Positions 1 through 52,092 of a stretch of 52,092 nucleotides of DNA are shown one piece after another (the stretch's first letter is position 1; every line of letters begins with the position of its first letter). Origin of the DNA: Escherichia phage flopper; sequence record NC_048845.1. The stretch is one strand, 5' to 3'. The notes under the pieces are model-generated. The model worked only from the letters and a program-made list of their open reading frames with translations, was not told where the DNA came from and ran no database searches. The position numbers and the translations under genes are program-made.

Positions 1-19
1 TCCAACTAATGTTTCAGAA
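1..19 (-). promoter_or_regulatory. conserved intergenic motif copy at the window edge
   Basis: TCCAACTAATGTTTCAGAA. Confidence 0.3.
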
Positions 20-110: not shown

Positions 111-140
111 GCCTTTCTTCCCTAAGTGGTCAGAATCAAA

Positions 141-158
141 TCCCACTAATGTTTCAGA
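141..158 (-). promoter_or_regulatory. conserved intergenic motif copy
   Basis: TCCCACTAATGTTTCAGA. Confidence 0.35.
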
Positions 159-4565: not shown

Positions 4566-4580
4566 AAGTTGTTATTCACA

Positions 4581-4597
4581 CTCAACTAATGTTAGAT
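4581..4597 (-). promoter_or_regulatory. conserved intergenic motif copy
   Basis: CTCAACTAATGTTAGAT 16 nt upstream of the start at 4565. Confidence 0.35.
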
Positions 4598-7336: not shown

Positions 7337-7530
7337 TTTATTCTCCTAAGTTAAAGAAAACTCCCTACAGAACGATTGTGGAGGTCTTGTCTTACCTCAA
7401 TCCACCTTAAAGTTGTAGGGAGTATGTGACACAGCAAGTGCCGAAGAACTACAATGATTAGCTTGGAGACATAATCTCTCTAAAATCTGTCACACAATTT
7501 CAGCAGAGTTTACAGAGATTTGGTCTTATT

Positions 7531-8360
7531 CACATGCAACTAATGATAAATGGACATGCTTAATTGCAACTAATTCATCTGCCAAATAGACGAATTTTGT
7601 CACAATTAAACATGCGTCATTAATTACAGGTTTACTCCCACACTTAACGTATTTGGCACATTAAGATTGGAGCAAGCAGGTACGGAAAACCGACCATGTA
7701 CAGCATAATAAAACTAATTAAATAAAGGGTTTTATCCCAATATTGTCACAATATTACATGCGATGATAAAGCCTTCGCTTGGCTGGAAGCCAGTATTCAT
7801 GCGGGTTGCAAGAATATTGGGTCAATACTGATACAGCTATTACATGCGAAATTGGCACAAATACTGTTACAAAATTAACATGCCAGATTGGTAGACGATT
7901 GTATCTTCGAGGTGATTAGTCCTCTAACAATTCTGCCACATTCCAACATGCCAATTTGTAGCAATATTTACATGCCATACTGCGACAATATTGTCACAAT
8001 ATTTGTTGCTCAAAATCGGGCGGGCTACGGGATTAGTTTCGCGGCTTTGCTCCGACTCTTCTCTTCTTTCGAATTCTGATTGAAAGAAAGAAGCATGTCC
8101 AAAAGTTCCAATATTACAAAAGTTATCTCCCGGCTTGTGGGTGGGCCTTTATAATAGGAGATGGAGCAATATTGTCGCAATTGAACATGCTTTAGTTGAA
8201 GAACAGTTTCGGATGATAATCCTACTTCACACATGGTTGCTGGAACTTTGTCCGGCCAAAGACAGGGAGTTCAATGATTGCCACATCATTACAACACTGT
8301 ATGTTTAGTTGACATGCTGAAATGTTTCTAGAATGATTTCAACATGACATGCGGAATACT
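7531..8360. repeat. cluster of at least 12 ACATGC half-site repeats in a non-coding region (candidate origin/regulatory region)
   Basis: Plus-strand ACATGC (often as ttACATGC / aACATGCc) recurs about 12 times in ~830 bp, plus aatattgtcacaatatt-type elements and a hairpin cttctttc-N11-gaaagaag near 8058-8095. Confidence 0.5.
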
Positions 8361-8381
8361 TCTCCGTATTCTGTTACTTCA

Positions 8382-8402
8382 CATCCAACTAATGTTACAG
8401 AT
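8382..8402 (-). promoter_or_regulatory. conserved intergenic motif copy at the edge of the ACATGC-rich region
   Basis: CATCCAACTAATGTTACAGAT. Confidence 0.35.
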
Positions 8403-8469
8403 GGCTACAATATTGAAGCCAGCTCTAAGATTAATTAGAACAAAAATAGGGAGCCGAAGCTCCCAAGTA

Positions 8470-8694
8470 TCAGAACGGTATCTCTGTATCAAAGTATCCA
8501 GAATTGTGTAGGAATGAGTGCAATAGTACATGCGACTCTTGTTTATATTCTGCTAACAATTCTAAGAAGTCTTTAGTCTCCTCCACTGTAGGACGAGATA
8601 AATTACTCATATCACAGGTGTGATGAGGATTGAAACAGTTTTCGATTTGATTGATTTGTTGAGTATTCATTGTAGTCTCCAAGTTTGTGGTCAT
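8470..8694 (-). CDS. hypothetical protein
   Basis: 74-aa ORF immediately downstream of the RNA polymerase gene. Confidence 0.35.
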   Translation of the reverse strand: MTTNLETTMNTQQINQIENCFNPHHTCDMSNLSRPTVEETKDFLELLAEYKQESHVLLHSFLHNSGYFDTEIPF

Positions 8695-8711
8695 CCTTGA
8701 CCCAATTAATG

Positions 8712-10652
8712 TTATTGACAGAAGTAGTAAGCGTGTTCGCTCATCAGAAGCTCTTCGGTTACGATGTTCTCATGATACATCTGAATGCCACCAAGTTGCT
8801 TAGACAGATTCTCGAATTGATTGTTGGTTACGAAGATTTCAACATATGCTGCACGAATAACTTCCATCATGCGTGGAGCATCAGCTAAGCAGCAACGGAA
8901 ACAATCGTGGATTGAAGTAAAGCCACGAAGACCAGCTTCTTTAGCTTTAACTGCAACAGTACGAGCAACCAATGCGTCAATACCTTGGATGTAGTTAACA
9001 ACGAAGGTACGCTTGAACTCTTCTTTAGTTGGATTGGACTCACGAATGGTCCAAGGCTTATTCTCCTGAATCTGACCAAAGATGACACGAGTTTGAGAAT
9101 CAACACGAATGCTGAATGCCTCACAGATTTCACGAGATGGGAAGCAAGGCTTCATTACAACCTGACCATCAGTGTGGCGATATGTGATGTACTCTTTGCC
9201 AAGTTCAACACAACGGTTGTATGCAGCATCAGCAGCTTTCTCGATGAACATGTTAATCTTAGCACCCAATGCGTTATGGATTGCTTCTACACACAGTTCA
9301 GCAAATGCCTCAGCTTTCTCCATAGGAATCTGGAGAGCTTCTGTCATGTAGCTAATGAAGTCAGAAGAACCAGTCAATGCAGCTTTACCACCACCATATT
9401 GGATAGCCATGTATGGAGTTTTGATAAACTTACGACCAGCTTTCGGATTCAAGAATTCATCCATAATTTCAGGAGATGGCTTCATTGAAGAACGGTCTAA
9501 TAACTTCAACAGTTCACGAAGAGATAACTGGTATGGGTCAGATGCTTTAGTCTCAGAATCAACCAGACCTGTTGCACGAGCCATTTCCATGTTACCAGCA
9601 ATGAATGCCAGATATTGAGTACCAGAACATTTAGCATCTAAGCCAAAGCCTACACGAGAATCGCATTCACCTGTAGTCTCGAACTTGAACCAATCCAGAG
9701 CCAGACGAACATAAGTGAATGGCTTGGAAGGACGTTCAGCTTTAGGCATGTTCATCATGCGAGCAAGTGAACCAGCTGGATTCTGAGCAACATAAGTTAA
9801 ACGCTTAGCACTGCACCACTCACCACCGGAAATATCTTCCAGCTCTGCCATGAACATGTTGTATGCAATGGTAGTAGAACCATCTTCGTTAAACTTCTTA
9901 ACGATGTTCTCAACATTGTGAGAATACAAGCAACGAGCAAAGTCAGAGGATTGTGGGTTAGGACCAGCACATGCTACATGATACAGACGACCACGGTTAT
10001 CAGCGAAGTAGTCAGAATACAGCTTATCCTGATTCATCATTGCTACAGCATTGTTCCAAACATGAAGTTCAGTCTGGATTGCTTCTGGCACCTGCAAGCC
10101 ACCATAAGTACGTTGCTCAAGCATGGACTGGATGATGCGAACCATCTCAGTCTCCACATGGTACTCAGTATCTTGCAGGAATTCGATTGCAGCTTTCAGA
10201 GTTTTGGATGGCTTAACTTTGCCACCTTTAACGAAAGGCTTGCGACGAGATTCAGATGTAACACGCTCAGTGAATGGCACTGCTGTGTCTTTGGTTGTAA
10301 CCAGTTCAACCCATGTATCAGTTTGTTGGAATGACTTGTCTTCGTTCATGGTGATGAATCCAAAGTGCTTAGCCAAACCAATGAGGTTGATAGCTGGGTC
10401 AACATAGTGCATTGCTTTCAAATCGTTGTTATAACGGTTGGCATCAGCAATAGAAGCAGAAGCCAGCTCAACCATCGCGATGGCAGGAACAACGTCATCA
10501 CGAGTGAAAGACGTCATCATCTTGAAGATGGCTAAGGCAGCAATAGCACAAGTCTGTGGCTGCATATAGTTCTGTTTCTCTTTGGCACGATATACCAGAG
10601 CAGTGATAGCAGGAACAACGGATTTGATAGTTTGAGTGGTGATAGTAGTCAT
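8712..10652 (-). CDS. single-subunit (T7-like) DNA-directed RNA polymerase, short form
   Basis: 646 aa with motif A-like DAKCSGTQYLAFIAG, motif B-like RKFIKTPYMAIQYGGG and motif C-like IHDCFRCCLAD; GGAG RBS 8 nt upstream of the ATG. Confidence 0.8.
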   Translation of the reverse strand: MTTITTQTIKSVVPAITALVYRAKEKQNYMQPQTCAIAALAIFKMMTSFTRDDVVPAIAMVELASASIADANRYNNDLKAMHYVDPAINLIGLAKHFGFITMNEDKSFQQTDTWVELVTTKDTAVPFTERVTSESRRKPFVKGGKVKPSKTLKAAIEFLQDTEYHVETEMVRIIQSMLEQRTYGGLQVPEAIQTELHVWNNAVAMMNQDKLYSDYFADNRGRLYHVACAGPNPQSSDFARCLYSHNVENIVKKFNEDGSTTIAYNMFMAELEDISGGEWCSAKRLTYVAQNPAGSLARMMNMPKAERPSKPFTYVRLALDWFKFETTGECDSRVGFGLDAKCSGTQYLAFIAGNMEMARATGLVDSETKASDPYQLSLRELLKLLDRSSMKPSPEIMDEFLNPKAGRKFIKTPYMAIQYGGGKAALTGSSDFISYMTEALQIPMEKAEAFAELCVEAIHNALGAKINMFIEKAADAAYNRCVELGKEYITYRHTDGQVVMKPCFPSREICEAFSIRVDSQTRVIFGQIQENKPWTIRESNPTKEEFKRTFVVNYIQGIDALVARTVAVKAKEAGLRGFTSIHDCFRCCLADAPRMMEVIRAAYVEIFVTNNQFENLSKQLGGIQMYHENIVTEELLMSEHAYYFCQ

Positions 10653-10722
10653 TTGTAAGTCTCCAAGATTGTGTATGATTTAACTGAAACGGATTATAAT
10701 AGCGTAGCCATTACACAATTCA

Positions 10723-10740
10723 CAACCAACTAATATCACA
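10723..10740 (-). promoter_or_regulatory. conserved intergenic motif copy (candidate phage-RNAP promoter) upstream of the RNAP gene
   Basis: caACCAACTAATatcaca matches the repeated cacATCCAACTAATGTTtCAGA family. Confidence 0.35.
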
Positions 10741-10899
10741 AACCTGTGCCATTGTTACAACAGCACGGAGACTTTGACCTTGACTCATAAGCGAAGCGCC
10801 TAACTTGGTGTTATCATTAAGCCGATAGGCTGTAGAAAAAGTTGGGTAGGGACCGTATTTTAAGTCCGATAGGACGTTGGGCTTCCCCTCCTCGCCGCC

Positions 10900-11115
10900 T
10901 CAAAAAATAAAAATTAATATTGCCACAATTCTAGTCTCGTTAATATTGAAACAATTTGAGTCTCATTAATTCTGTAGCAATATTGAAAATAAAAAAAAAA
11001 ATTATAAAAAAAAATTATTTCATAGTCGGACTTCTGTTCGAACAAATTTCGGCGAGATACAGCTGACCGACCATGAACGAATTTCTATCCAGGTACAGTT
11101 GACCGACCATGTACC
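10900..11115. repeat. A-tract plus 13-bp direct repeats between nrdB and the RNAP gene
   Basis: aaaaaaaaaattataaaaaaaaattattt (about 10981-11010); tgaccgaccatg x2 (about 11063-11075 and 11100-11112); tagcaatattg elements. Confidence 0.45.
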
Positions 11116-11259
11116 ATTTGGTTTTAACTTTACGCATTCCTAATATTACTCTTAATATTGTAGCAATATTGGGAATAAATAAATATTTAATTTACTTGTT
11201 TTATTCTAGTTCAAAGAGAAACGACGCTAACGCATCGAATCTCTTCTCACATTTAATCG

Positions 11260-17494: not shown

Positions 17495-18652
17495 TTATAC
17501 CGTTACGTCAGTGTAGGTTATATTGGCAGCAACGCCACGAGCACGCTTATCAATATCCAAATCAATGGTTGCTGTTCCAGTTGGGTTTGGAGCAATACCA
17601 ATAAACAAGGAATCAATTTCAAGCGACTGTGTTGCAGCCATAATTGGAGCAAACATGTTAGACCATACTACACTCTGCCCTGGTTGTAGGGAGTTGAGAT
17701 AGTTAACAGTTGCTTCGGTCAGTTGACGAATAGCATCGTTAGAACTCAAGTTGGCATTTGCACGGCGACGGAACGTACCTTTGACATAAATGTCTGTGTA
17801 AGTTGGTCGGCTGAAATGAATATCGTGCGGATAGCCTTTTGAGTCTGACACAGTGATTGTAATATCGCCATGAGTAGGAACGCCACCAGTTTTGGCATTG
17901 TAGATTCGACGGGCAATATCATTATTGGTGCCGCCATCAACTACAACAAATACAGTGCCCGAAGGCTGATTGCCAATAGGAGAGCCGGTATCATTATCAC
18001 GAACACGAATGTAATTAATATCGAGGTCAGCGAGTGAAGCATAGATGGCTTCGACTGTGGCTGTGCTACTGACTGCCGTAGTCTTTTCTCGACGTGCTCG
18101 AAGTTGTGGGTCTGGCTCATAGTTAATACCTGTCTCACCAGCTGTTTCATTGTTAACAGAAGCCCAACCAGCAACAGGAGTTACAATTTTGTTGATGGTG
18201 TTAGGTGCGATATAATACTCACCTGGCTCTTCTGCAATAACAGTTACGTCACCTGGAAGTGTTACGTCTGTGTCAAGCACGAAGCGCATTGTTCCATCAG
18301 TTACAACAGAACCAGCAGGAACAATAGTCCCTGTATCACCTTTGCACAGAACAGTTGCTTGTGAGGGTTTATCAACATATCGAACAGTGTTTGTTAACTC
18401 ACAAACGTTATCCAGCCCAACACCAGATACAGCACCTGGACGGAATGCGTTGAATACTTGTTCGGCCTGTTCCCAGCACGAAGCTATTTCGTCTGCCATA
18501 ATTCCAATATATTGTCCATCGGGGGATTCCGGACTTATATCAAAGTTGGAACCAAATGCAGCAATAAATTTGTTATTAAGGCTTGATACAACGTCGGCCA
18601 CAGGTTTACGAACAAAGCCGTTCTCTGTTACGCCGTATTTGATTGTTGCCAT
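17495..18652 (-). CDS. baseplate J-like protein
   Basis: 385 aa following the gpW-like gene, as in the P2/Mu-type W-J-I order. Confidence 0.6.
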   Translation of the reverse strand: MATIKYGVTENGFVRKPVADVVSSLNNKFIAAFGSNFDISPESPDGQYIGIMADEIASCWEQAEQVFNAFRPGAVSGVGLDNVCELTNTVRYVDKPSQATVLCKGDTGTIVPAGSVVTDGTMRFVLDTDVTLPGDVTVIAEEPGEYYIAPNTINKIVTPVAGWASVNNETAGETGINYEPDPQLRARREKTTAVSSTATVEAIYASLADLDINYIRVRDNDTGSPIGNQPSGTVFVVVDGGTNNDIARRIYNAKTGGVPTHGDITITVSDSKGYPHDIHFSRPTYTDIYVKGTFRRRANANLSSNDAIRQLTEATVNYLNSLQPGQSVVWSNMFAPIMAATQSLEIDSLFIGIAPNPTGTATIDLDIDKRARGVAANITYTDVTV

Positions 18653-22126: not shown

Positions 22127-22154
22127 TGCAATATACCTATTGAAATTAATACAT

Positions 22155-22172
22155 ATTCAACTAATGTTAAAG
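22155..22172 (-). promoter_or_regulatory. conserved intergenic motif copy (candidate phage promoter)
   Basis: ATTCAACTAATGTTaaAG lies between the tape-measure stop and the next start, just downstream of the hairpin at 22179..22192. Confidence 0.35.
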
Positions 22173-22198: not shown

Positions 22199-25100
22199 TT
22201 AACGTCTTTGTTGCGCACCGTTGTTCATGTTCATTTGTTGAGTCACAGTCTGACCACCAGGAATTGCAACTGTAGCAGAAGCAGTCTGGTTGTTGACCTT
22301 AGCATCAATCTTAACATTAACAACAGTTTGGGTTTGACCGTATGACATTCCATTACGAGTAAACCCTGTAGCACCTTCTTCCAGAGATTGAGAAGACTTG
22401 GACCATTCACGGAATGCTTTGACGCGATTCTGTGCTTGTACAGGAACAGCAGTCAGCCAATCCAATCCATTCTTATCAACAGCTTTGTCAACAGTGCCAG
22501 GACCATCTGTGTAAGCAGCCATTGCCTTTTCGTGGTCGCCATAACGCTTGTACATTGCGTCATAGTATTCACGACCAACTCGCGCATCATCTTCTGGAGT
22601 TCCATCAGACGGCCTGATTCCAAATCCTGGGTCACGGGCAGTCGAAGGGAGAATCTGCATTATCCCACGAGCACCAGTTGGACTTGTTACACGAGAACCA
22701 TCTTTGTTGTATTCACGACCGCCAGATTCCTCTTGGGCGATAAAGTCGTAAACATTTCCAGCAAATTCTCGCGTCTTATTCAGTCCAGTGCGTACACCGT
22801 CAAGTGCATCACTGCCAGCCTCAAATACAGAAGCACCATTAGATAAGACACTTTGTGGCACGTTGTAGCTTGGCAGCATCCGTGCGCGGCTTCCCTGCAA
22901 CATTTCCGATTGGGCCATACCTTCGGCAAAGTCGGAGTTTCTACCCGCTTCTACCACCGAACCAGCTTGCTCATGGCTGTATTCCGTGCGGTCATAGGCT
23001 CGCGCCATCCCATTCAGGCCAGCCATTTCAGCAGCACCTGCGATACGGGCCTGACTCCAGCCACGCTCCTTGCCCCTTTCCTGCATGATGCGAGCCAGGG
23101 CCACAGGGTCGCCGCCTGTCGCACGAATATCACCTATGGTGAGCAATCCCCTACTGCCGCGAACGATGTTCACAGCGGCGCTGGGGTCGCCGTTAAGCAT
23201 GGTGTTGTAGGCACTATGTGTGGTTTGATTCAGACGTGCCGCTTGTTGTGAATTGAGTCCTAACATCTCCAAGCCTTGCGACATAGAAGAATATTCATTA
23301 GGATTTATCACACCAGCATCAAGCGAGTTGCCGATAAAGTCATTCATGTATTCAGCAGCTTCATTGCCAATCTGAATGGCACCAATGCCTACGGCAGCCA
23401 TACGTCCCGCAGGAGTTGCCATCAATGCTTGCATAACTCCGTTGGTTGCTGAACCAATACTGCCACCAGCAATACCAGCAGCTAGTGAACCACCCATGCG
23501 ACCGTAGTCATCATAGTAGTTGCCACCACTTGTGAAGTTGCCGCCACGACCACCGCCACCGCCAGAATATCCACCGCCATTGGCAGCGTCAAATCTCTCA
23601 CGGTTCCAGCCCATTGAATCAGCTTTGCCGTCAAAGTCTGCATCTGCACCGATACCTTTCTGCCTGTTTTCTTCCTGAGCAGCAAGGATACCTTTCTTAA
23701 CAGACAATGCCATCGAGTCATTTCCGGTGTCACCATTACCAGTGGTTGCCGGAAAGTTTTGCTCGTGCAATACAAAGTTTGGCTTGTAGTCAGAGTAGGA
23801 TGCTTCTGGATTGTACGAAGAACGCGAACCAATAAACGGGTCTTCTGGGGTACCAGCAACAGCAGAATAGCCACGAGTAGACTTTTGACGAATATCTTTC
23901 CAGATTCCATCACCAGTCATTGCACTTCTTGCACCAGCAATCAGCTCTTCTCGCCCTAATCCAGCATTGTTTCTAACAAACTCTCGCCCAGCATCAAGAC
24001 GGCCAAGCACAGAATCAAGGCGATTTCGGTTTCTCTCGTACCATCCTTCGTCCTTCTCAATCCATTGTGAACGTGTTTCGTCGTTGATGGTTTGTGAGAA
24101 CAAAGCACGAGAACGGCCAGAAACGTGCATACCAAATTGAATTTGGTCCATGTAGTCTGGATGGTCGCCTTTAAGAAGGTCAGCAAACTTACCAGCCCTT
24201 TGCGGATTCTTGTGCTCCCAAATGGCATCATCCCCAATAAGACCATCAGGAGAATACATGAAGGCGGGATAGTTGTCATTTGTTATAGCGCCAGTTTGTT
24301 TGATATCAAATCCAAATTCCTTACTAACACGAGCGCGTGCTTCTTCTTCCGTCCTGTGACCATCAGCGAACATCTTCTTGGTGAAATCGCTGTGCTCTTT
24401 ACTACGAGATAGGCCAATCTTATCAATCATACCGGCCCAAGGTCGGGTGTATGGGTTGTTTCCTAAGAAGGTCCCAACAGTTGAGCCAGTTATGTCATAA
24501 TTTTTACGGAAGTCTAGCCACTCTTGGCTGCCCTGTTCTAAGTCGTGGAATCGGACGGGGGACTTGGAACGTCCTGTGCCATAGTCTGATACATCACGGA
24601 ATCCAGCACTATCCATGTTTGCAATCGCAAGTTCCTCGCGACGCATTCTTGCAGAGTTCCAATTGGTGGCCTCTCCAAGTTGTGCTGTAAAATCTGTAGA
24701 TGTTGACAGTGAATCTTTATCGACTCGCTGTGAAGCTCCCTTCATCTTTGGAATGCGAACAGGTTCGGCATCCATTTTATCATAAGTGTTTTCGAGGATG
24801 GCTCGAACACTTGATGCAGAATAAGCTGGCTCATCTGCAAGTTCAGAACGAAGGTTTTCGTATCCGCTTCTGGCTTCTTCCAAATCCGTGTAGCGTGTTG
24901 CACTATCAATAATCATGTCACGGTCAGATACTTCGTGACGAGTATTCAGCATCCCTTTGGAGCCAGAATAAACTTTGGCAGCAGATTTAACAGCTTCACT
25001 AATAGAAGAATACAAAGCCTTGCTTGGTGCACTCCAACCAGTGCCACCAGTTAATGATGCAGTGAGGGAGTATTCTGGATTTATGCCAGAACCATAAGAG

Positions 25101-25924
25101 CCAAGTGGTAGTCCAGATGCGTTAAGAGGTGCACGAGGATGCGCAATGCCAGAAACAATTGAAGGAGAACCAATCTGAGGGAGTGCATCCATGTAAGAAA
25201 TATGTGGGGCCGATTTATTTCCTACATTAGATGCGGATGTATACCCAACTTCCTTAAAGGCTGAGGGTAACTCTCGTTCCAGACGTTTGGCAACTCGACT
25301 AATGTCTCTTGCGTATTGTTCATGATTGCTGTATTGCTCACGGTCAACATACATGTGAGCCATGTAGTTATAGGAGTCAGCAATGTTTCCACGGTTGGTG
25401 GAGTATTCTGCCATAATATCCCCAGCATAGTGACCTGGGATTTCTGGCATAATGTCTTGATGCCCTTGCAAAGTATCTCGCATATAGGCATTAAGCATGT
25501 TGAAGTTACCTTGCGGTAAGTTCGGATTTGGCTTCGGCATGTGCATCCACACATCATCTGTGCTAACGCCAAGCCTTTCCATGTATGCGTGAACAGCTTC
25601 TACATGGTGTGATGGGCCATTCATTGCTGCATGAAATGCTTCTGTGTAGCCAGCACTTGAAAGCACTTGTGCAATGTGGGCAGCGTCTGAAATCATGGAA
25701 GAGTCACCCAAAGATTCAGTAATCAAACTGTCATCTTCGAACGACCCACCCATTAATTCTGCATTTGTATCCAGCCATCCCGAAGCAGCGCTCGCACTAA
25801 GTTGTTGAACCATGTGCGACTTCTTCATACCAGCATGGAAAGTCAGACCGCTTTGAGAGCCTAATGCAATTAACTCATTAACGCTCAACTTCATTAAATC
25901 TTTTTGATTAGCCATTGTCTTCAT
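22199..25924 (-). CDS. tape-measure-like multi-domain virion protein (nuclease + hydrophobic segment + SLT lytic transglycosylase)
   Basis: 1241 aa in the tape-measure position; aa ~460-575 QEWLDFRKNYDITGSTVGTFLGNNPY...SPDGLIGDDAIWEHK (YqaJ/lambda-exo-like); aa ~780-860 Gly/Ala-rich hydrophobic stretch; aa ~1055-1160 ESGGREYN...GIMQILPSTA...YY (SLT-like). Confidence 0.7.
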   Translation of the reverse strand: MKTMANQKDLMKLSVNELIALGSQSGLTFHAGMKKSHMVQQLSASAASGWLDTNAELMGGSFEDDSLITESLGDSSMISDAAHIAQVLSSAGYTEAFHAAMNGPSHHVEAVHAYMERLGVSTDDVWMHMPKPNPNLPQGNFNMLNAYMRDTLQGHQDIMPEIPGHYAGDIMAEYSTNRGNIADSYNYMAHMYVDREQYSNHEQYARDISRVAKRLERELPSAFKEVGYTSASNVGNKSAPHISYMDALPQIGSPSIVSGIAHPRAPLNASGLPLGSYGSGINPEYSLTASLTGGTGWSAPSKALYSSISEAVKSAAKVYSGSKGMLNTRHEVSDRDMIIDSATRYTDLEEARSGYENLRSELADEPAYSASSVRAILENTYDKMDAEPVRIPKMKGASQRVDKDSLSTSTDFTAQLGEATNWNSARMRREELAIANMDSAGFRDVSDYGTGRSKSPVRFHDLEQGSQEWLDFRKNYDITGSTVGTFLGNNPYTRPWAGMIDKIGLSRSKEHSDFTKKMFADGHRTEEEARARVSKEFGFDIKQTGAITNDNYPAFMYSPDGLIGDDAIWEHKNPQRAGKFADLLKGDHPDYMDQIQFGMHVSGRSRALFSQTINDETRSQWIEKDEGWYERNRNRLDSVLGRLDAGREFVRNNAGLGREELIAGARSAMTGDGIWKDIRQKSTRGYSAVAGTPEDPFIGSRSSYNPEASYSDYKPNFVLHEQNFPATTGNGDTGNDSMALSVKKGILAAQEENRQKGIGADADFDGKADSMGWNRERFDAANGGGYSGGGGGRGGNFTSGGNYYDDYGRMGGSLAAGIAGGSIGSATNGVMQALMATPAGRMAAVGIGAIQIGNEAAEYMNDFIGNSLDAGVINPNEYSSMSQGLEMLGLNSQQAARLNQTTHSAYNTMLNGDPSAAVNIVRGSRGLLTIGDIRATGGDPVALARIMQERGKERGWSQARIAGAAEMAGLNGMARAYDRTEYSHEQAGSVVEAGRNSDFAEGMAQSEMLQGSRARMLPSYNVPQSVLSNGASVFEAGSDALDGVRTGLNKTREFAGNVYDFIAQEESGGREYNKDGSRVTSPTGARGIMQILPSTARDPGFGIRPSDGTPEDDARVGREYYDAMYKRYGDHEKAMAAYTDGPGTVDKAVDKNGLDWLTAVPVQAQNRVKAFREWSKSSQSLEEGATGFTRNGMSYGQTQTVVNVKIDAKVNNQTASATVAIPGGQTVTQQMNMNNGAQQRR

Positions 25925-27019: not shown

Positions 27020-28468
27020 TTACTGAACGAAGTTGCCAGAGATAACTGCACCCTGTAATGCGCCAGAGCCAATTGCAATGAAGGAAGTGCCTTCCCAGAT
27101 ACGAGCACCTTTCTGAGATTGCATCAGAGCCAAGTCAGTAGACAAGACTTTGTAACCATCAGGATAGAAGTTGCCTTCATTGTCGTAACCTGGAGCAATC
27201 AGACCATTGGTCACTGCCAGTTCCAGAGCCAGGGTTACTTGCTGGTTCACCAGTGCAACACCAGTGTCCGTCCAAGGAATCTTGGTAGTGGAAGTGTAGA
27301 ACAGGTTGAACACGTTAGCACGAATCTTGGAGGTTAGCCAAGAAACACCCTGCACGGTATCGAACCAAGTACCGTCAGCCATCTTGCCGTTGTAGAACAT
27401 AGTGTTCCCACCAACGTTGATGAATGCGTTACCGTTAACACGCTCAAGTGCAGCAAGCTGGTTCGGGGACAAGTCAGCAGTCTTGATAGCTGGACCTTGC
27501 TTAAACGCCAGAACGAGCGAGGAGTTTGCAACGTTGAAGTTAACAGTAGATGCACGACCCAGGATAGAAATCTCTGGATATTCGTCGCCATTGTCGGAAG
27601 CATCATACACCAGCAGGGTGCGCTGTAGATTCTGCTCTTTAGCCCGCTTGAAGCTAGATTCAGCACCAGCAACCAGAATCTGTTTATCACTGTCAGCCCA
27701 GCCAAACACTTTCTCGTTTGCTTCTGCCCACTTGGCAACAGTCATTTGAACATTGCCAGCAGCACTGCCACGATATTTGCGGTCGATTGCAACGAAGAAG
27801 AAGTTGAACGTCGAGTTCAAGATTGCGTTCAGGTCTGTTCCTACAGATACTTCATCAGTGCCATGCACATATACCGGACTTGAATCTGCATCAAGTTCGA
27901 ATGCTGGAGCAGCAGAGCCGTATACATCACCGATAATGGAGTTAGAGCCTTTAGACTCGGTCACAACTTTAAAGGTGCCTTCGCTATGAGTCATGGTTAC
28001 GGGAATACCCGCAGCAACCAGTGCAGCGTTTGCCATAGAGGCAGCAGCATCAAAGTCAGAGGCCGAAGAGAAGTTGATTGGGGCCGTAGAATGGTCTACA
28101 CCATCAACGTTAATAGACAGCACACCGTTAGTAAGCGCAGTGATAGTTCCCAGAGTTGCAGCAGCAGATGCAGTAACAGTGCCTGGAGTTGCCGGAGTAA
28201 CATCTTCATGAGTGATAGCACCCACGAGGAAATACTTCGGAGTCGGTTTCTGAGAGTACCATGCCAAAGCAGCTTGGTAGATTTCACCAGATGGGAAATC
28301 GGCAGAAACAGCAGCCATGCTGGAATACTGGCGAACAGGAACACGTTCACCTGGTGCTGGAACAAACTGCTTGCTCAAGAACAGTAGCGGACCAAAACCT
28401 TCCACGGCAACAGCGTTAGGGGATACCGCGATGTTGACCTGGATGATATCGGAAATTGGAATTGCCAT
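27020..28468 (-). CDS. contractile tail sheath protein
   Basis: 482 aa preceding the tube and chaperone genes in the myovirus-type order. Confidence 0.65.
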   Translation of the reverse strand: MAIPISDIIQVNIAVSPNAVAVEGFGPLLFLSKQFVPAPGERVPVRQYSSMAAVSADFPSGEIYQAALAWYSQKPTPKYFLVGAITHEDVTPATPGTVTASAAATLGTITALTNGVLSINVDGVDHSTAPINFSSASDFDAAASMANAALVAAGIPVTMTHSEGTFKVVTESKGSNSIIGDVYGSAAPAFELDADSSPVYVHGTDEVSVGTDLNAILNSTFNFFFVAIDRKYRGSAAGNVQMTVAKWAEANEKVFGWADSDKQILVAGAESSFKRAKEQNLQRTLLVYDASDNGDEYPEISILGRASTVNFNVANSSLVLAFKQGPAIKTADLSPNQLAALERVNGNAFINVGGNTMFYNGKMADGTWFDTVQGVSWLTSKIRANVFNLFYTSTTKIPWTDTGVALVNQQVTLALELAVTNGLIAPGYDNEGNFYPDGYKVLSTDLALMQSQKGARIWEGTSFIAIGSGALQGAVISGNFVQ

Positions 28469-34908: not shown

Positions 34909-36944
34909 GCGGAGTAGTTGGCACTTGGGCCAGAGAATTCGATTGCAACCATATCTGAAACGTTATCGACACAATCGTCGTGTCCAGTACCACTACCCAA
35001 AGAAGTGAATCCAAGTATTTCACGTCTAACATGGTCAATGTGTTCATGACCAGCAGGGAAGAATATTCTCTTTTGCGAGAAATATGGGATTGCGTTAAGG
35101 AATCGAGTTACCTTGTCATTACCATTGATGCCATCACGAGGCAGCGGTAAAACTCGGACACTCCCATCTCTAATAAATTGTTGATTCAAGAATTGTCCAG
35201 CAGACTTGTCTTCCATGTACAGTGCACGAGGAATACAACCTACACACTTCAAATCCAACTTGTTGCATTTGTTCCAGAAGTCGATGATAGCAGTCTTGAG
35301 TTCTGGAGTTTCGAACTTACCGAGCATAATATCTAAACAATAAACATCACGCTCTTTAGTCACGCCCCAATGCTTAAGGACCGAATAATCAGAATAGGAT
35401 TTGGCAGTTGATGCCGTATCCGCTGTAATAAAACTTCTGACTATGCGACTTCTGTCGAAAACGTCTGGTTCATACTCTTGCCACCAATCTTCTTTGATAA
35501 GGCCGTGGCCTTGTGCAGATGGGTCGCCAGCATACTGTGAATTGTATGTATATGGGTTAGACTCTTTCATTGCCTCCAGAGATTCTAAACTCTTACGTGA
35601 AGGCCATAATGCAGACTTCTCTTCCTTCCTGTTCAAATTGTACAGAATGGGAATAGCATGAGTGTAGTTCTGCTTCTTGATTAACTTATCATACCATTCA
35701 GCACTTCCAACGCCCTTCTCAATAATCGCTGGGATATTGAGATAATGGTATTTGTCGGAAGAGCCGCCACGGAGTATGTAACCAACTAAATCCTGGTCAT
35801 GAACTCGCTGCATGATGATAACCATTGGTGTACGGGCACACTTAATTTGGTTTCCGTACGAATCAGTTATGCAACCATCGTTGGCAAGACGGGACATAAA
35901 GGTGTTATCAAATCGGTCGTTGATTTCTGCTCGAACTGTGTCAGAGTAGGCATCTTTTGGTTTGATAACGTCATCCACCACGAAACAACCGGAGTATTTT
36001 GCAACAAGAAGTCCAGCACCTTTACCAGTCAGCTTACCACCAGTAGGTACTGCGTGCATAACTCCAGCTTTGGTTGTACCCCAGCGCTCAAGTGAACGTT
36101 TGTTGGGGTCGATTCTCACCTTCGGAAATATGCGTTGGAACAGTGGGTCCATCATTACAGCACGGATGTAACCACTCGATTCAAGAACAACGTCTTCTGC
36201 ATACGAGGTGATAATGTTATGGCTTGATTCATTGTGGCAAAATGAATACAAGGGCAATGCAATACTCATGAGCTGAGTCTTAGAGTGTCGTGGAGGAATG
36301 GTCACTATTAAGCGGTCAATCTCACCATCAACAACCTTTTGACCAACACTGAATATTACATCGTGAAAGTCTTGTGCTTGAAATGGAAATCCCATCTGAA
36401 TATGGAACTGCCATTTACCAAAGGCTTCGAAACTTTTCATCAAGATTTTGCGAACACGCTCTGCAACCTTGGCAGGGATTACAGTTGGGTCCACATTGTG
36501 TGGGTCATGCAGAATCTTGTCTACAAGTTCCTCGGTGTTATCATGCTCCGAGTTTGGCTCCTCTAATGTGGAACCTGCAACACGGTCAGTAACACCTGCT
36601 TGAATACCTTTCTTCAACTCATCTGCATAGGCAGTTGAGTCTTTCCTGTCGCCAGAGCGAAGACGCTCAAGTTGTGCTCTGAAAACGGAACGCAGTACAG
36701 CATCGTTTTCAAGACCCTGGCCTTCTAACTCTGCTTGAATTTGTTCTTCATAGCTGTCAACTATTGCAGTATTTTCTGAAATATATCGACGGAGCAATGG
36801 CAAAGATAGAATACAGAATCTTTCTCTTGAGACTTTTAATACGTCACCGTAGTGTTTGGCAAGATACGAGGCTACTGTATCATTAAACTCCGGCCCGAGG
36901 TCATCAGTCTTTGACATTGATTCGTTCTCTTTGTTTTTAATCAC
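34899..36944 (-). CDS. terminase large subunit
   Basis: 681 aa with ATPase-like region (IPPRHSKTQ) and C-terminal nuclease-like region. Confidence 0.8.
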   Translation of the reverse strand: MIKNKENESMSKTDDLGPEFNDTVASYLAKHYGDVLKVSRERFCILSLPLLRRYISENTAIVDSYEEQIQAELEGQGLENDAVLRSVFRAQLERLRSGDRKDSTAYADELKKGIQAGVTDRVAGSTLEEPNSEHDNTEELVDKILHDPHNVDPTVIPAKVAERVRKILMKSFEAFGKWQFHIQMGFPFQAQDFHDVIFSVGQKVVDGEIDRLIVTIPPRHSKTQLMSIALPLYSFCHNESSHNIITSYAEDVVLESSGYIRAVMMDPLFQRIFPKVRIDPNKRSLERWGTTKAGVMHAVPTGGKLTGKGAGLLVAKYSGCFVVDDVIKPKDAYSDTVRAEINDRFDNTFMSRLANDGCITDSYGNQIKCARTPMVIIMQRVHDQDLVGYILRGGSSDKYHYLNIPAIIEKGVGSAEWYDKLIKKQNYTHAIPILYNLNRKEEKSALWPSRKSLESLEAMKESNPYTYNSQYAGDPSAQGHGLIKEDWWQEYEPDVFDRSRIVRSFITADTASTAKSYSDYSVLKHWGVTKERDVYCLDIMLGKFETPELKTAIIDFWNKCNKLDLKCVGCIPRALYMEDKSAGQFLNQQFIRDGSVRVLPLPRDGINGNDKVTRFLNAIPYFSQKRIFFPAGHEHIDHVRREILGFTSLGSGTGHDDCVDNVSDMVAIEFSGPSANYSAWM

Positions 36945-37122
36945 AATCCACTAATGGTTGAGTTTGCACGGGATTGATGCGAATGATGCTGCCCAAACCA
37001 GAATCAGCCTTTAAATACAGGCGGTTTAGCGGCATATATGAATCACAGATAGGACATTGCTGCGTTATGAAATCATCTTCTGCAATTTCATAGTGGCAGT
37101 TAGGGCATTGTATTGTGCGCAT
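36937..37122 (-). CDS. zinc-ribbon protein
   Basis: 61 aa with CPNC...CPIC; 8-nt overlap with the terminase start. Confidence 0.4.
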   Translation of the reverse strand: MRTIQCPNCHYEIAEDDFITQQCPICDSYMPLNRLYLKADSGLGSIIRINPVQTQPLVDCD

Positions 37123-42139: not shown

Positions 42140-42412
42140 TTAATCGACTTGCAACACAGCAAGACGGAAGTCATATCCAACTAATGCTTCGGTCAGCTCT
42201 TCAATTGAAGACGTTGCCGAAATTAATGTTTGGATGTTTTTGAATGTCTCATCATTAAATGCTTGAGACTGTGGGTCAGACGAAGCGAATACTTTGTCCT
42301 TAATCTTTTCAAGGAACGCCATTACAGCGTCCTTTGCAGGAACTTCGGAATCAGCAGCAAACATATGATGCTCTAATTCCTGCATATCGAAAATTGAATA
42401 TACAGTTTGCAT
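42140..42412 (-). CDS. hypothetical protein
   Basis: 90 aa; its 3' end carries a copy of the conserved motif (42175..42192). Confidence 0.4.
   Translation of the reverse strand: MQTVYSIFDMQELEHHMFAADSEVPAKDAVMAFLEKIKDKVFASSDPQSQAFNDETFKNIQTLISATSSIEELTEALVGYDFRLAVLQVD
42175..42192 (-). promoter_or_regulatory. conserved motif copy (candidate phage promoter) inside the gene end
   Basis: ATCCAACTAATGcTTCgG about 66 nt upstream of the start at 42109. Confidence 0.3.
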
Positions 42413-50042: not shown

Positions 50043-50122
50043 TTGTATATACCTTATATTGAATAGTTTTGCACGCCACGGTGACGTGACTTAGATAAAA
50101 ATTAAAGAGCCTTTCTCTTTCC

Positions 50123-50143
50123 ACATCCAACTAATGTTTCAGA
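50123..50143 (-). promoter_or_regulatory. conserved intergenic motif copy (candidate phage promoter)
   Basis: CATCCAACTAATGTTTCAGAA about 80 nt upstream of the start at 50042, preceded by an imperfect hairpin ctgattcgt-caa-acgactcag. Confidence 0.4.
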
Positions 50144-50844: not shown

Positions 50845-51171
50845 TTAGTGGCCTTGTAGGATACGTTTGTTCGCAGTTTCTGCGTCGATTCCCAAATCAA
50901 CTAATGTCACCAAGCACTGCGAAATCCGCTCTTGCGCAGCTTTCTCCAGAATTTGGTATTTTTCGTTGTCAACGCCTAACACATTCTTGGCATGAATGAG
51001 TGTAGCCATTAGACCATGACCCAAAGCAACAGCTTGCATTGCCTGGAGTTCAAAGTTAATTGTGATTCCAGCGAGTTCGTGCTCTTTCTGGATAATCTCA
51101 ATCAACTCTTCTTTGGATTTGTCTTGTAAGTTCAAAATGGAACTCCGTAAATCGGTTGGTTTGTTGTCCAA
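50845..51171 (-). CDS. hypothetical early protein
   Basis: 108-aa ORF. Confidence 0.45.
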   Translation of the reverse strand: MDNKPTDLRSSILNLQDKSKEELIEIIQKEHELAGITINFELQAMQAVALGHGLMATLIHAKNVLGVDNEKYQILEKAAQERISQCLVTLVDLGIDAETANKRILQGH

Positions 51172-51452: not shown

Positions 51453-52092
51453 AGGAACTCTCCAATTTTTCGATTCAGTGTTTGTGACTTCTCTTCTCAT
51501 CTTTTGGCCAGGAACAGGCCACAGGGTAGCGCAGGAAGGCCGAAAATCGGGCCGCTGCCTACCGTTTGTGTCAATTCTGGATAACTGCATTGGTGAAGGG
51601 TTACTCCCGTTAGGGGTGCGATACGCTAATCACATGAGTGTCGTCGCCTTGCGGCTCAGGCGTGTCACAGAGGCTTTGCAACCCTTCCCAATACATTCAC
51701 CCAATCCACCTGCTTTGGCATAGCTGGTGGCGCGGTTTTGTGCGGATTATGCCACTCTAAGCCCTGTTTGTCCGACTTCCTCAGAGCACCAGCAGCTTGT
51801 GGCACAAACCTATTTTCGAATGACTAACATAAGCATGAGGCATTACCCTCTAATTATTCAGCCCTAACAGCTTGCTTATTTAGTTCCAATTCATCCCAAT
51901 ACATCGCCTATAACAAGTGAATAGCTTTTCTGCGAATAAGTATTCCGGCCCTTTGGCCTATGTTAAAAGATAAATGTATATGATGGAAACATTCCATCTG
52001 AAAGCAAACTAACTTCCCACAGGCATCGAACCTGTAATCCAGTGTAGATTTCTACACGAAGCAGTTTGCTTACACGATGTTGTCTCTTCAAT

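Follow-up and report, generated by a model that had tools for sequence, protein, structure and literature searches.

The compact single-subunit RNA polymerase of Escherichia phage flopper and a candidate promoter for it

How does an RNA polymerase (RNAP) of the T7 family come to be so short in a phage with a contractile tail, is it a working enzyme, and which DNA sequence might it read? These questions are raised by a gene on the (-) strand of Escherichia phage flopper (8712..10652). The window analysed is the whole of record NC_048845.1, a complete, circularly permuted Carltongylesvirus genome of 52,092 bp, in which the first-pass annotation had noted a 646-aa, T7-like RNAP with a shortened N-terminal region and, perhaps, a different way of recognising promoters. 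Taken as a whole, the evidence indicates that the gene very probably encodes the phage's own single-subunit DNA-dependent RNAP, the counterpart in this Carltongylesvirus (Chaseviridae) of gp01 of phiEcoM-GJ1. It is the standard, already described polymerase of phiEcoM-GJ1-like (Chaseviridae) contractile-tail phages: the 2008 paper on phiEcoM-GJ1 reportedly had as its main message that a myovirus carries a short single-subunit RNAP. Such an enzyme is a defining trait of the Chaseviridae (PMC12842549).

The polymerase gene and its phage

The open reading frame begins with an ATG; 7 nt before it lies a ribosome-binding site, GGAGA, and 30 nt before it an in-frame TAA, and these two features fix the start of the 646-aa protein. 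The protein matches Pfam RNA_pol (PF00940) with E=6e-18 and a score of 65.3 bits, well above the curated cut-off of 22, and PHROG 414, 'RNA polymerase', with E=7e-98. The assignment to the single-subunit T7 family thus holds, and the Pfam and PHROG matches are to RNA polymerase rather than to a non-polymerase family. The protein has 119 homologues. The RNAP of phage TH53 is 99.7% identical, and the orthologues phiEcoM-GJ1 gp01 (648 aa) and ST32 ORF1, with 92-99.7% amino acid identity, belong to the same class of 646-648 aa. A look-up of where assemblies break found no independent contig on record that encodes the exact flopper protein.

The T7 enzyme (883 aa, Autographiviridae) is 237 aa longer, as the first reading of the sequence had indicated. 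A gap of this size could mean that the flopper gene no longer functions, being what truncation or decay has left of a longer T7-type polymerase, and the annotated lengths of the relatives' RNAPs, which range from 617 to 704 aa, could be seen in the same light. However, those length differences come from choices of start codon, not from frameshifts, and the in-frame stop sets the length at 646 aa in flopper. More than 100 homologues, some with as little as 35% identity, keep a length of 630-670 aa, and none of the catalytic residues varies; the predicted structure is confident along the entire protein; and conservation extends to the N-terminal module, which occurs on RNAPs only. The remnant reading, to which a negligible probability is given, is already effectively refuted. 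To judge from its sequence, the flopper protein is almost certainly an active RNAP of the single-subunit family.

The genome belongs to the phiEcoM-GJ1 group. Over 91-98% of its two 25-kb halves it is 92-96% identical to Bp10, ST32, Bp7 and SA91KD, and in the RNAP region the DNA is 91% identical to that of phiEcoM-GJ1 and 95% identical to that of other Carltongylesvirus phages, and the kinship with phiEcoM-GJ1 named in the first reading was correct. Its size falls within the 52-56 kb of dsDNA expected of Chaseviridae and Carltongylesvirus; it has myovirus structural genes, a single-subunit RNAP and genes on one strand (all large ORFs are on the (-) strand), together with high nucleotide identity to, and synteny with, the type members. 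The contractile-tail genes said to accompany the polymerase are present on the (-) strand: tail sheath (27020-28468), baseplate wedge (17495-18652) and tail fibres, as well as the genes for the major head protein and the large terminase. phiEcoM-GJ1 has the same myovirus gene set and, in addition, one tRNA gene, whereas the flopper genome has none.

Catalytic core and N-terminal module

Residues 206-620 align with T7 residues 409-853 (hhalign; P 97%, 370 columns), and the three catalytic motifs that had been read from the sequence are in register with those of T7: motif A with the catalytic Asp339 (T7 D537) in GLDAKCSGTQ (9636..9638, (-) strand); motif B with K411 and Y419 (T7 K631 and Y639; 9396..9422, (-)); and motif C with His582-Asp583 (T7 H811-D812; 8904..8909, (-)). 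Both catalytic Asp residues, D339 and D583, are therefore in place. The element D218-N-R220-G-R222 (9987..10001, (-)) corresponds in the same register to T7 D421/R423/R425. In 32 diverse family members, down to 35% identity, D339, R407/K411/Y414/Y419, H582/D583 and D218/R220/R222 are invariant. The protein has the right-hand palm/fingers/thumb fold. Its palm/fingers core is of the T7/mitochondrial RNAP type, and no catalytic or NTP-binding residue is missing from it.

Within this core, residues 506-540 (SIRVDSQTRVIFG...KPWTIRE; 9033..9137, (-)) form a segment rich in β-hairpin, with four predicted strands, that aligns with T7 residues ~737-781. It stands where T7 has its specificity loop and is, by sequence, a candidate equivalent. 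The segment is near-invariant in the clades that carry the DNA motif described below and different in the clades that lack it, although shared ancestry is a confounder of this pairing between loop and motif.

The term “T7-like” is true at the level of family and fold only, because identity to T7 RNAP is 13-17% and the flopper enzyme is about equally far by sequence from T7 RNAP as from the mitochondrial and N4 polymerases. The mitochondrial RNAPs (yeast Rpo41, human POLRMT) need separate initiation factors; they are much larger, with N-terminal extensions, and have no organismal relationship to flopper.

The difference in length from T7 lies mainly at the N-terminus, as had been suspected. The HMM alignment of the RNAP starts at residue 189 (T7 347), and ~205 residues precede the palm where T7 has ~408, which accounts for ~200 of the 237 missing residues. 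Residues 1-149 (10206..10652, (-)) form a compact module with predicted helices at 6-23, 32-46, 57-74, 76-81 and 87-96, a predicted β-hairpin at 100-110, and a conserved basic loop, RRKPFVKGGKVKPSK, at 135-149. This is followed, directly N-terminal to the equivalent of T7 residue 409, by a helical segment (residues 150-205; 10038..10205, (-); helices 150-160, 168-183 and 196-205), which would occupy the position of the T7 thumb. Pfam RPOL_N (PF14700) gave no match at E<=1, either with the whole protein or with residues 1-205; the N-terminal profile gave no significant match to T7 1-420 (hhalign, P 0.2%) or to N4 gp15. In contrast to T7 RNAP, the flopper enzyme therefore lacks the RPOL_N signature, and neither an AT-rich recognition loop nor a subdomain H could be detected in it; the T7-group N-terminal architecture, which combines these with an intercalating hairpin, was not found. 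The ~150-aa module occurs only in compact RNAPs, and in the predicted model it looks winged-helix-like.

It is plausible that so short an N-terminus implies a different way of recognising promoters, given the lack of RPOL_N and of a match to T7 1-420, the winged-helix-like fold, and a candidate promoter unlike those of the T7 group. A more speculative step, put forward as a tentative reading, is that the module is a minimal promoter-binding domain. Such a domain would do without the first ~70 residues of T7 RNAP, the AT-rich recognition loop and subdomain H, and would keep the β-hairpin at 100-110 as a possible equivalent of the intercalating hairpin; it would fit a promoter without a conserved AT-rich element at its upstream edge.

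Perhaps the enzyme works instead in the manner of N4 RNAP II, which depends on gp2 and a single-stranded template. It would then recognise promoters poorly or not at all by itself and would rely on a phage cofactor, a single-stranded or melted template, or both, one candidate cofactor being the small acidic protein encoded next to it (8470..8694, (-); 74 aa, PHROG 20790), an orthologue of gp02 that is annotated in relatives. N4 RNAP II (gp15 + gp16, PDB 6dt7) is a polymerase of the same family and of minimal size; with 269 + 404 aa it is close in size to the flopper protein, which matches both of its subunits structurally. The nearest BLAST matches outside the family are in phage records annotated 'N4-like RNA polymerase', PHROG 2051 and 2166 also match, and the gp02-like ORF is conserved, has no assigned function, and lies directly 3' of the RNAP gene inside the terminal repeat described below. 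When this ORF was compared with Pfam and PHROG as a possible T7 Gp2-like inhibitor of host RNAP, the only match was a family without assigned function. However, the flopper RNAP is one continuous 646-aa polypeptide and not a heterodimer of the N4 RNAP II type. The similarity to N4 in sequence is limited to the gp16 core, and the match to the T7 profile (P 97%, 370 columns) exceeds that to gp16 (P 93%, 180 columns), with none to gp15, so that a closer kinship to N4 RNAP II than to T7 is unsupported by profile comparison. The hairpin resembling the specificity loop is kept and conserved, and a conserved ~20-nt double-strand motif is dispersed before genes. An N4-like mode of action is accordingly held to be improbable, and a polymerase with promoter specificity of its own is the reading followed below.

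A candidate promoter motif

An unbiased 14-mer search over the intergenic gaps returned, as its top result, a motif of ~20 nt on the coding strand, ACATTAGTTGGATGTGAA, which marks about 11 sites in the genome, almost exclusively intergenic. The consensus of the candidate promoter is (t)aACATTAGTTGGATGTGAA(g)aAaca. Matches number 24, against 8.6 +/- 3.0 expected. With up to three mismatches there are 10 sites on the coding strand and none on the other; seven of the 10 are intergenic and the remaining three lie within the last 21-63 nt of an ORF. In relatives whose RNAPs are from 100% to about 40% identical, there are ~100 matches on the coding strand, at syntenic places, against one on the opposite strand. 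The clades with 32-39% RNAP identity lack the motif, save for four three-mismatch matches that resemble chance, and a repeated-k-mer search of those clades for a replacement returned only coding repeats.

The copy nearest to the polymerase gene, ATATTAGTTGGTTGTGAA (10719..10736, (-)), starts 84 nt upstream of the RNAP ATG and overlaps a sigma70-like site, TTGTGA-18-TATTAT (10725-10696); in most relatives a copy lies 37-111 nt upstream of the RNAP gene, and in a few it lies farther upstream. The other copies are likewise on the (-) strand. The copy at 8378..8395 has the perfect consensus and is 'putative phage promoter 1' of phiEcoM-GJ1; TCATTAGTTGCATGTGAA at 7529..7546, ahead of an early cluster of small ORFs, is 'putative phage promoter 2'. 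At 4575..4592 an ORF starts 27 nt after the start of the motif. Copies with three mismatches lie at 135..152 and 50890..50907, and one with a single mismatch at 50120..50137. The copy at 42170..42187, at the 3' end of a 90-aa ORF, and that at 22150..22167, upstream of the baseplate hub gene, are equivalent to 'putative phage promoter 8' and 'putative phage promoter 9', respectively, and a weak copy (36940..36957) lies just upstream of the large terminase gene. One further copy is split by the end-join of the record, with its 5' part (ACATTAGTTGGA) at 1..12 and the rest (ATTGAA) at 52087-52092.

The GenBank annotation of phiEcoM-GJ1 gives the same motif as nine 'putative phage promoters', and eight consensus promoters have been hypothesised for PP101 (PMC6989608), while according to the ICTV profile Chaseviridae promoters 'have not yet been identified' (PMC12842549). 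A literature search with the motif sequence returned nothing relevant; searches for a published assay of any Chaseviridae RNAP, or for transcription start sites of any member, found none. A further search on the characterisation of compact RNAPs was equally without relevant results, and apparently no member of the ~640-aa clade has been purified or structurally solved.

At several sites a ribosome-binding site and ATG follow within 15-25 nt of the motif, a spacing too short for a -35 box. No conserved -10 element was found downstream of the ~20-nt block, and on these grounds a sigma70 promoter was rejected as the identity of the motif. The T7-group promoter spans about 23 bp, has its end at +1 to +6 and is repeated on the coding strand before gene clusters; the flopper candidate is a motif of ~20 nt that is dispersed in a comparable way but unrelated in sequence. 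These sequence patterns suggest that the motif is probably the promoter of the flopper RNAP. Host RNA polymerase would first transcribe the RNAP gene from the sigma70-like site about 45-75 nt upstream; the phage enzyme would then transcribe the rest of the single-strand-oriented genome from the ~20-nt promoter, initiating at or beside its GTGAA end, and would also transcribe its own gene, in positive feedback. Given the overlap between a sigma70-like site and the copy ahead of the RNAP gene, some copies of the motif may be used by host RNAP. An RNAP that is compact by nature, consists of one polypeptide and is specific for an orthogonal ~20-nt promoter would be attractive in practice for synthetic-biology circuits and in vitro transcription, and the flopper genome supplies a candidate enzyme-promoter pair.

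Terminal repeat and DNA ends

Counted from the left end of the genome, the RNAP gene comes first, inside the segment that in relatives forms a direct terminal repeat of ~2.3-3.2 kb. The flopper assembly is collapsed, and the putative repeat is placed here by homology to JL1, Y2, PM1, Mangalitsa and Myduc. The homologous segment (~2.8 kb; 8054..10868, no strand assigned) contains the RNAP gene, the gp02-like ORF and two copies of the promoter-like motif. The duplicated ends of JL1 map to flopper 8054 and 10868; in Y2, PM1, Mangalitsa and Myduc the left terminus is homologous and the right boundary is rich in purines, and the right boundary of Mangalitsa can be located in flopper near 8058. The RNAP gene is inside the repeat in Y2, PM1 and JL1, whose records contain both copies, and in Mangalitsa and Myduc (PhageTerm). 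In PYps23T a terminal repeat with the RNAP gene has been found experimentally (PMC8762354); its reported length is 2,339 bp and, unlike that of JL1, it maps to flopper 8384-10723. Two copies of the gene are thus expected per virion DNA. In this location, within a segment homologous to the long terminal repeat of a contractile-tail phage, the flopper gene differs from that of T7.

In phiEcoM-GJ1 and ST32, as in flopper, the RNAP gene comes first, followed by gp02 and then by a ~1 kb non-coding stretch; both phages share the promoter-like motif, and the differences amount to a few percent of sequence divergence. After the RNAP-gp02 unit there is a hairpin resembling an intrinsic terminator, GGGAGCTTCGGCTCCC, with a T-tract (8449..8464, (-)), and in SA91KD a terminator is annotated at the equivalent place.

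In three different copies of the motif, a DNA end has been reported at the same phase (ACATTAGTTGGA|N), and the motif may therefore be a DNA-processing site, with or without a role in transcription as well. The dispersed ACATTAGTTGGA|NGTGAA would then be a recognition site either for a nickase of the site-specific kind known from phages of the T5, phiKMV and tf types, or for a terminase cut that creates the terminal repeat, with the true promoters elsewhere or less conserved. Both experimental repeat boundaries of PYps23T are at the identical phosphodiester in two copies, GGA|CGTGAA and GGA|TGTGAA (PMC8762354), and the flopper end-join is at GGA|ATTGAA in a third, for which the chance under random breakage is, by arithmetic done for this analysis, roughly 2.5e-4. 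The nick sites of phage tf and phiKMV-like phages have a 9-19-nt consensus confined to one strand, and several of these nicked phages encode single-subunit RNAPs (PMC3517423). However, the repeat boundaries of five other relatives are at a different pair of sites (flopper 10868 and 8054), with homologous left termini and right boundaries that are all purine-rich, and no other record among the public records and IMG/VR contigs examined begins or ends at the motif. The sites are, moreover, almost exclusively intergenic and directly before gene clusters, with spacing compatible with ribosome-binding sites, which is promoter-like rather than nick-like. A processing site in place of, or in addition to, a promoter is rather unlikely on this evidence, and the two roles are not mutually exclusive. 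A promoter that doubles as a site of physical DNA discontinuities, read by an RNAP with a stripped-down, winged-helix-like promoter-binding module, would be an outside chance of much the same order. If the ends were real nicks or cuts, then the formation of genome ends or nicks would be linked either to open promoter complexes of a compact RNAP or to a nuclease specific for the motif.

Repeats of another kind, GCATGT and a perfect palindrome (AATATTGT-G-ACAATATT), occur only in the two non-coding stretches on either side of the RNAP gene. They were set aside as promoters, being confined to these flanks while the unbiased search gave a different, genome-wide motif; N4-style hairpin promoters formed by the palindrome were set aside on the same grounds, without a folding test. 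Sigma70 promoters were rejected as an explanation for these repeats, as for the motif: a consensus scan found no enrichment (11 against 11.4 expected). Just 3' of the RNAP gene, the GCATGT repeats form a conserved, strand-specific array (7532-8533), which, if the motif did double as a site of DNA discontinuities, could be an associated replication or processing region.

Genome and relatives

The DNA of the RNA polymerase (RNAP) region is 90–95% identical to that of 41 Carltongylesvirus (Chaseviridae) phage records, including phiEcoM-GJ1, ST32, Bp10, SA91KD and Mangalitsa, and identity at the RNAP protein level is 99.7% with TH53 and 92–99% with the other relatives. A whole-genome comparison, in which each 25-kb half of the window was 92–96% identical to Bp10, ST32, Bp7 and SA91KD over 91–98% of its length, bears out the link to phiEcoM-GJ1-like phages drawn in the first-pass annotation. 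The join between the two ends of the window is crossed without a break by all 45 matching relatives (in 44 cases across 80% or more of the 600-nt query), so the window is a complete, circularly permuted genome. As that annotation had also stated, the RNAP gene occurs alongside sheath and baseplate genes: PHROG scans located the tail sheath (27020–28468) and a baseplate wedge (17495–18652), both on the minus strand, with further minus-strand genes for tail fibres, major head protein, large terminase, DNA polymerase and primase/helicase. Its statement that this combination had been described for phiEcoM-GJ1-like phages was correct; the 2008 phiEcoM-GJ1 paper reportedly carries a single-subunit RNAP and a contractile tail in its title. 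A short RNAP in a contractile-tail phage is known already, as a family-defining trait of Chaseviridae, and the remaining value lies in a compact RNAP with a concrete candidate promoter, in a coincidence of DNA ends and in an array of GCATGT copies.

Several side observations concern the genome and its relatives. No tRNA gene was found by ARAGORN in the whole window, whereas phiEcoM-GJ1 carries tRNA-Arg; tRNA comes and goes within this phage group (PMC8762354). A 1241-aa virion protein in the tape-measure/tail-lysin position (22199–25924, minus; PHROG 19855) matches RecE-like exonuclease PHROGs at residues ~455–647 and has a transglycosylase-like C-terminal segment. A Hafnia alvei chromosome (NJFP02000002.1, 2.78 Mb) encodes a 648-aa RNAP, 52% identical to that of the window and adjoining a phage integrase, holin and hydrolase; the element is present too as a separate ~52-kb contig (51.8 kb), and is apparently a temperate relative; the family is described as strictly lytic. 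Large contigs from Pseudomonas and Lelliottia also carry similar RNAPs. PP952070.1, which is named “Staphylococcus phage Pel53” and gives Staphylococcus hyicus as host, shares 89% identity with the window over 80% of 25 kb; this host label, odd for a family infecting Gammaproteobacteria, may be a mislabel or reflect a contaminant.

The compact RNA polymerase

The RNAP gene lies exactly where the first-pass annotation had put it, at 8712–10652 on the minus strand, with an ATG start and 646 aa. Two features upstream of the ATG set the start in the window so as to give 646 aa: a TAA codon, in frame at a distance of 30 nt, and a ribosome-binding site, GGAGA, at 7 nt. Annotated lengths in relatives are 617 aa (SA91KD), 648 aa (phiEcoM-GJ1) and 704 aa (Mangalitsa and JL1), and the differences among annotations (617, 646, 648 and 704 aa; loci L002, L004 and L042) are due to start-codon choices. 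Against Pfam RNA_pol (PF00940) the protein scores 65 bits (cut-off 22), and against PHROG 414, “RNA polymerase”, it reaches E = 7e-98. Since the 119 homologues found among 5.8 billion proteins reach down to 35% identity and are nearly all 630–670 aa long, the short length is ancestral to the clade and does not reflect truncation.

The protein had been described as T7-like, with motifs A, B and C, and shorter than the T7 enzyme. Invariant in a 32-sequence alignment are D339 (in GLDAKCSGTQ), R407, K411, Y414, Y419, G420 and H582-D583, as well as D218, R220 and R222. Profile alignment places these residues in T7 register (D339 with D537; R407/K411/Y419 with R627/K631/Y639; H582-D583 with H811/D812; D218/R220/R222 with D421/R423/R425). 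Foldseek matches the protein to T7 RNAP (E 1.5e-18); as sequence identity to the Foldseek targets, T7 RNAP included, is just 10–17%, “T7-like” is valid at the level of family and fold. The enzyme is 237 residues shorter than T7 RNAP (646 versus 883 aa), and because residues 206–620 align to T7 409–853 (P 97%), about 200 of the 237 missing residues precede the palm, i.e., the shortening is N-terminal. Where T7 RNAP has its specificity loop, the window RNAP has a four-strand hairpin (residues 506–540, SIRVDSQTRVIFG...KPWTIRE). The observation is confirmed and its interpretation supported; the further suggestion, that the shortened N-terminal region may mean different promoter recognition, is plausible.

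Residues 1–205 have no Pfam match, RPOL_N included, and the N-terminal profile showed non-significant similarity to T7 1–420 and to N4 gp15. Among 1.84 billion representative proteins, a profile built on residues 1–210 found 47 proteins at E ≤ 1e-3, mostly of 600–830 aa, the remainder being short fragments and one 901-aa protein. Because there were these 47 matches only, and because Pfam RNA_pol was present in nine and RPOL_N in none of the ten distant matches tested, the N-terminal module is restricted to a clade of compact RNAPs. The best register, itself non-significant and the same from HMMER and hhalign, sets residues 6–85 against T7 71–164 with a gap at the T7 AT-rich recognition loop (93–101). 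It is conceivable, if somewhat doubtful, that the module is a minimal promoter-binding domain that would lack the AT-rich loop and subdomain H. A basic loop, RRKPFVKGGKVKPSK (residues 135–149), is kept even in the most distant clades, which suggests a sequence-independent nucleic-acid contact.

A candidate promoter motif

An unbiased search for 14-mers common to the intergenic gaps of the window gave (A)ACATTAGTTGnnTGTGAA, on the coding strand, as its top result. At up to three mismatches, ATTAGTTGNNTGTGAA occurs 24 times (8.6 ± 3.0 expected), and the promoter-like 18-mer has ten sites on the coding strand and none on the opposite strand. Of the ten, seven are intergenic and the other three fall within the final 21–63 nt of an ORF, every one directly preceding the next gene; the end-join interrupts an eleventh copy. 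As gaps of ≥60 nt account for ~11.5% of the genome, the chance of seven of ten sites falling in gaps is ~2e-5, with the caveat that it was in gaps that the motif was first found. At the end-join, close relatives (loci L006–L009) are collinear up to the motif, diverge within 6 nt and resume ~84 nt later, which places the motif at mosaic (recombination) boundaries.

Twenty related loci from phages of Escherichia, Yersinia, Erwinia, Pectobacterium, Pantoea and Proteus (RNAP identity 100% to ~40%) have between them ~100 coding-strand matches versus one on the opposite strand. Their positions are syntenic: mostly 37–111 nt ahead of the RNAP gene (at a greater distance in a few relatives), then ~2.0–2.3 kb past the RNAP start and beyond. 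In the same scan, the motif was absent from the clades of 32–39% identity, save four chance-like 3-mismatch matches, and from one of two loci of ~42% identity. The specificity-loop equivalent hardly varies among clades with the motif and differs in the rest, a co-occurrence consistent with a polymerase–promoter pair and confounded by phylogeny.

A frequency matrix of 42 non-redundant sites has a ~20-nt conserved block followed by an A-rich stretch, and lacks a −10-like element at constant spacing. GGAG and ATG come only 15–25 nt past the motif at several sites, which rules it out as a −35 element. The motif is not new: the phiEcoM-GJ1 record has nine annotated “putative phage promoters” bearing its sequence, which SA91KD copies, and eight promoters of this kind were hypothesised in PP101 (PMC6989608). 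The phiEcoM-GJ1 annotation differs in omitting the copies upstream of the RNAP gene (window 10736) and the terminase gene (window 36957). Our literature search found no transcription start mapping or enzyme assay, and the ICTV profile describes Chaseviridae promoters as not yet identified (PMC12842549).

Terminal repeat, DNA ends and the GCATGT array

Direct terminal repeats are present as both copies in the records of Y2 (2,608 bp), PM1 (2,665 bp) and JL1 (2,995 bp), were assigned by PhageTerm in Mangalitsa (3,234 bp) and Myduc (3,202 bp), and were established in PYps23T (2,339 bp) by restriction mapping, ligation-PCR and direct sequencing (PMC8762354). In all six the RNAP gene lies inside the repeat. 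Because the JL1 boundaries map to window 8054 and 10868, and Y2, PM1, Mangalitsa and Myduc have left termini homologous to the window site ...CG/GACTTAAAATACGGTCCC, the segment 8054–10868 appears to be the terminal-repeat equivalent. Within it lie the RNAP gene, an acidic ORF of 74 aa (8470–8694; PHROG 20790) that is conserved and orthologous to phiEcoM-GJ1 gp02, and an intrinsic-terminator-like hairpin (8449–8464). A sigma70-like site, TTGTGA-18-TATTAT (10725–10696), 45–75 nt upstream of the RNAP ATG, is likely to be an entry point for host RNA polymerase.

The reported PYps23T boundaries, ...ATTAGTTGGA/CGTGAA... and ...ACATTAGTTGGA/TGTGAA..., each lie in a motif copy, at one and the same phosphodiester of the motif (equivalent to window 10724/10723 and 8384/8383), and the window's own break (1/52092), at ACATTAGTTGGA/ATTGAAG, lies in a third copy in the same phase. 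These three ends could be site-specific nicks or cuts, and T5-like, phiKMV-like and tf phages have documented strand-specific nicks, localised at consensus sequences (PMC3517423); however, five relatives share another boundary pair (window 10868 and 8054), and none of the other records and contigs examined has an end at the motif. The ends could also be method or assembly artefacts at a repeated motif.

Directly after the RNAP–gp02 unit, a ~1-kb non-coding stretch (7532–8533), which straddles the repeat boundary equivalent at 8054, has 12 coding-strand copies of GCATGT; the other 51 kb have 20, counting both strands. The palindrome AATATTGT-G-ACAATATT, perfect at 7739–7755 and 7987–8003, follows several copies in the array. 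Among related loci (L006–L027), those with RNAP identity down to 42% have 9–16 GCATGW copies in the same place, on the coding strand only; the 52% Hafnia-type locus has five, and clades of 32–37% identity have 0–2. Array and promoter-like motif occur in the same clades. In T7, the primary origin comprises promoters and an AT-rich region directly after gene 1, and on this parallel our leading guess is that the array would be a replication origin. GCATGT resembles the 3′ half of the candidate promoter, since some copies of the latter read TTGCATGTGAA, and half-promoters or pause sites are possible readings, as is an operator array.

Just outside the left boundary, between nrdB and the start of the terminal-repeat equivalent, is a repeat-bearing non-coding stretch (10869–11259, minus). 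It has three tandem 26-nt units, each with a AATATTGnnACAATATT-like palindrome (10913–10986; another copy at 11154–11170), a long tract rich in A/T homopolymers (10986–11018) and two copies of GGTACAGYTGACCGACCATGWAC (11055–11119), a third lying at 7678–7706. These repeats are possible packaging or terminase recognition elements.
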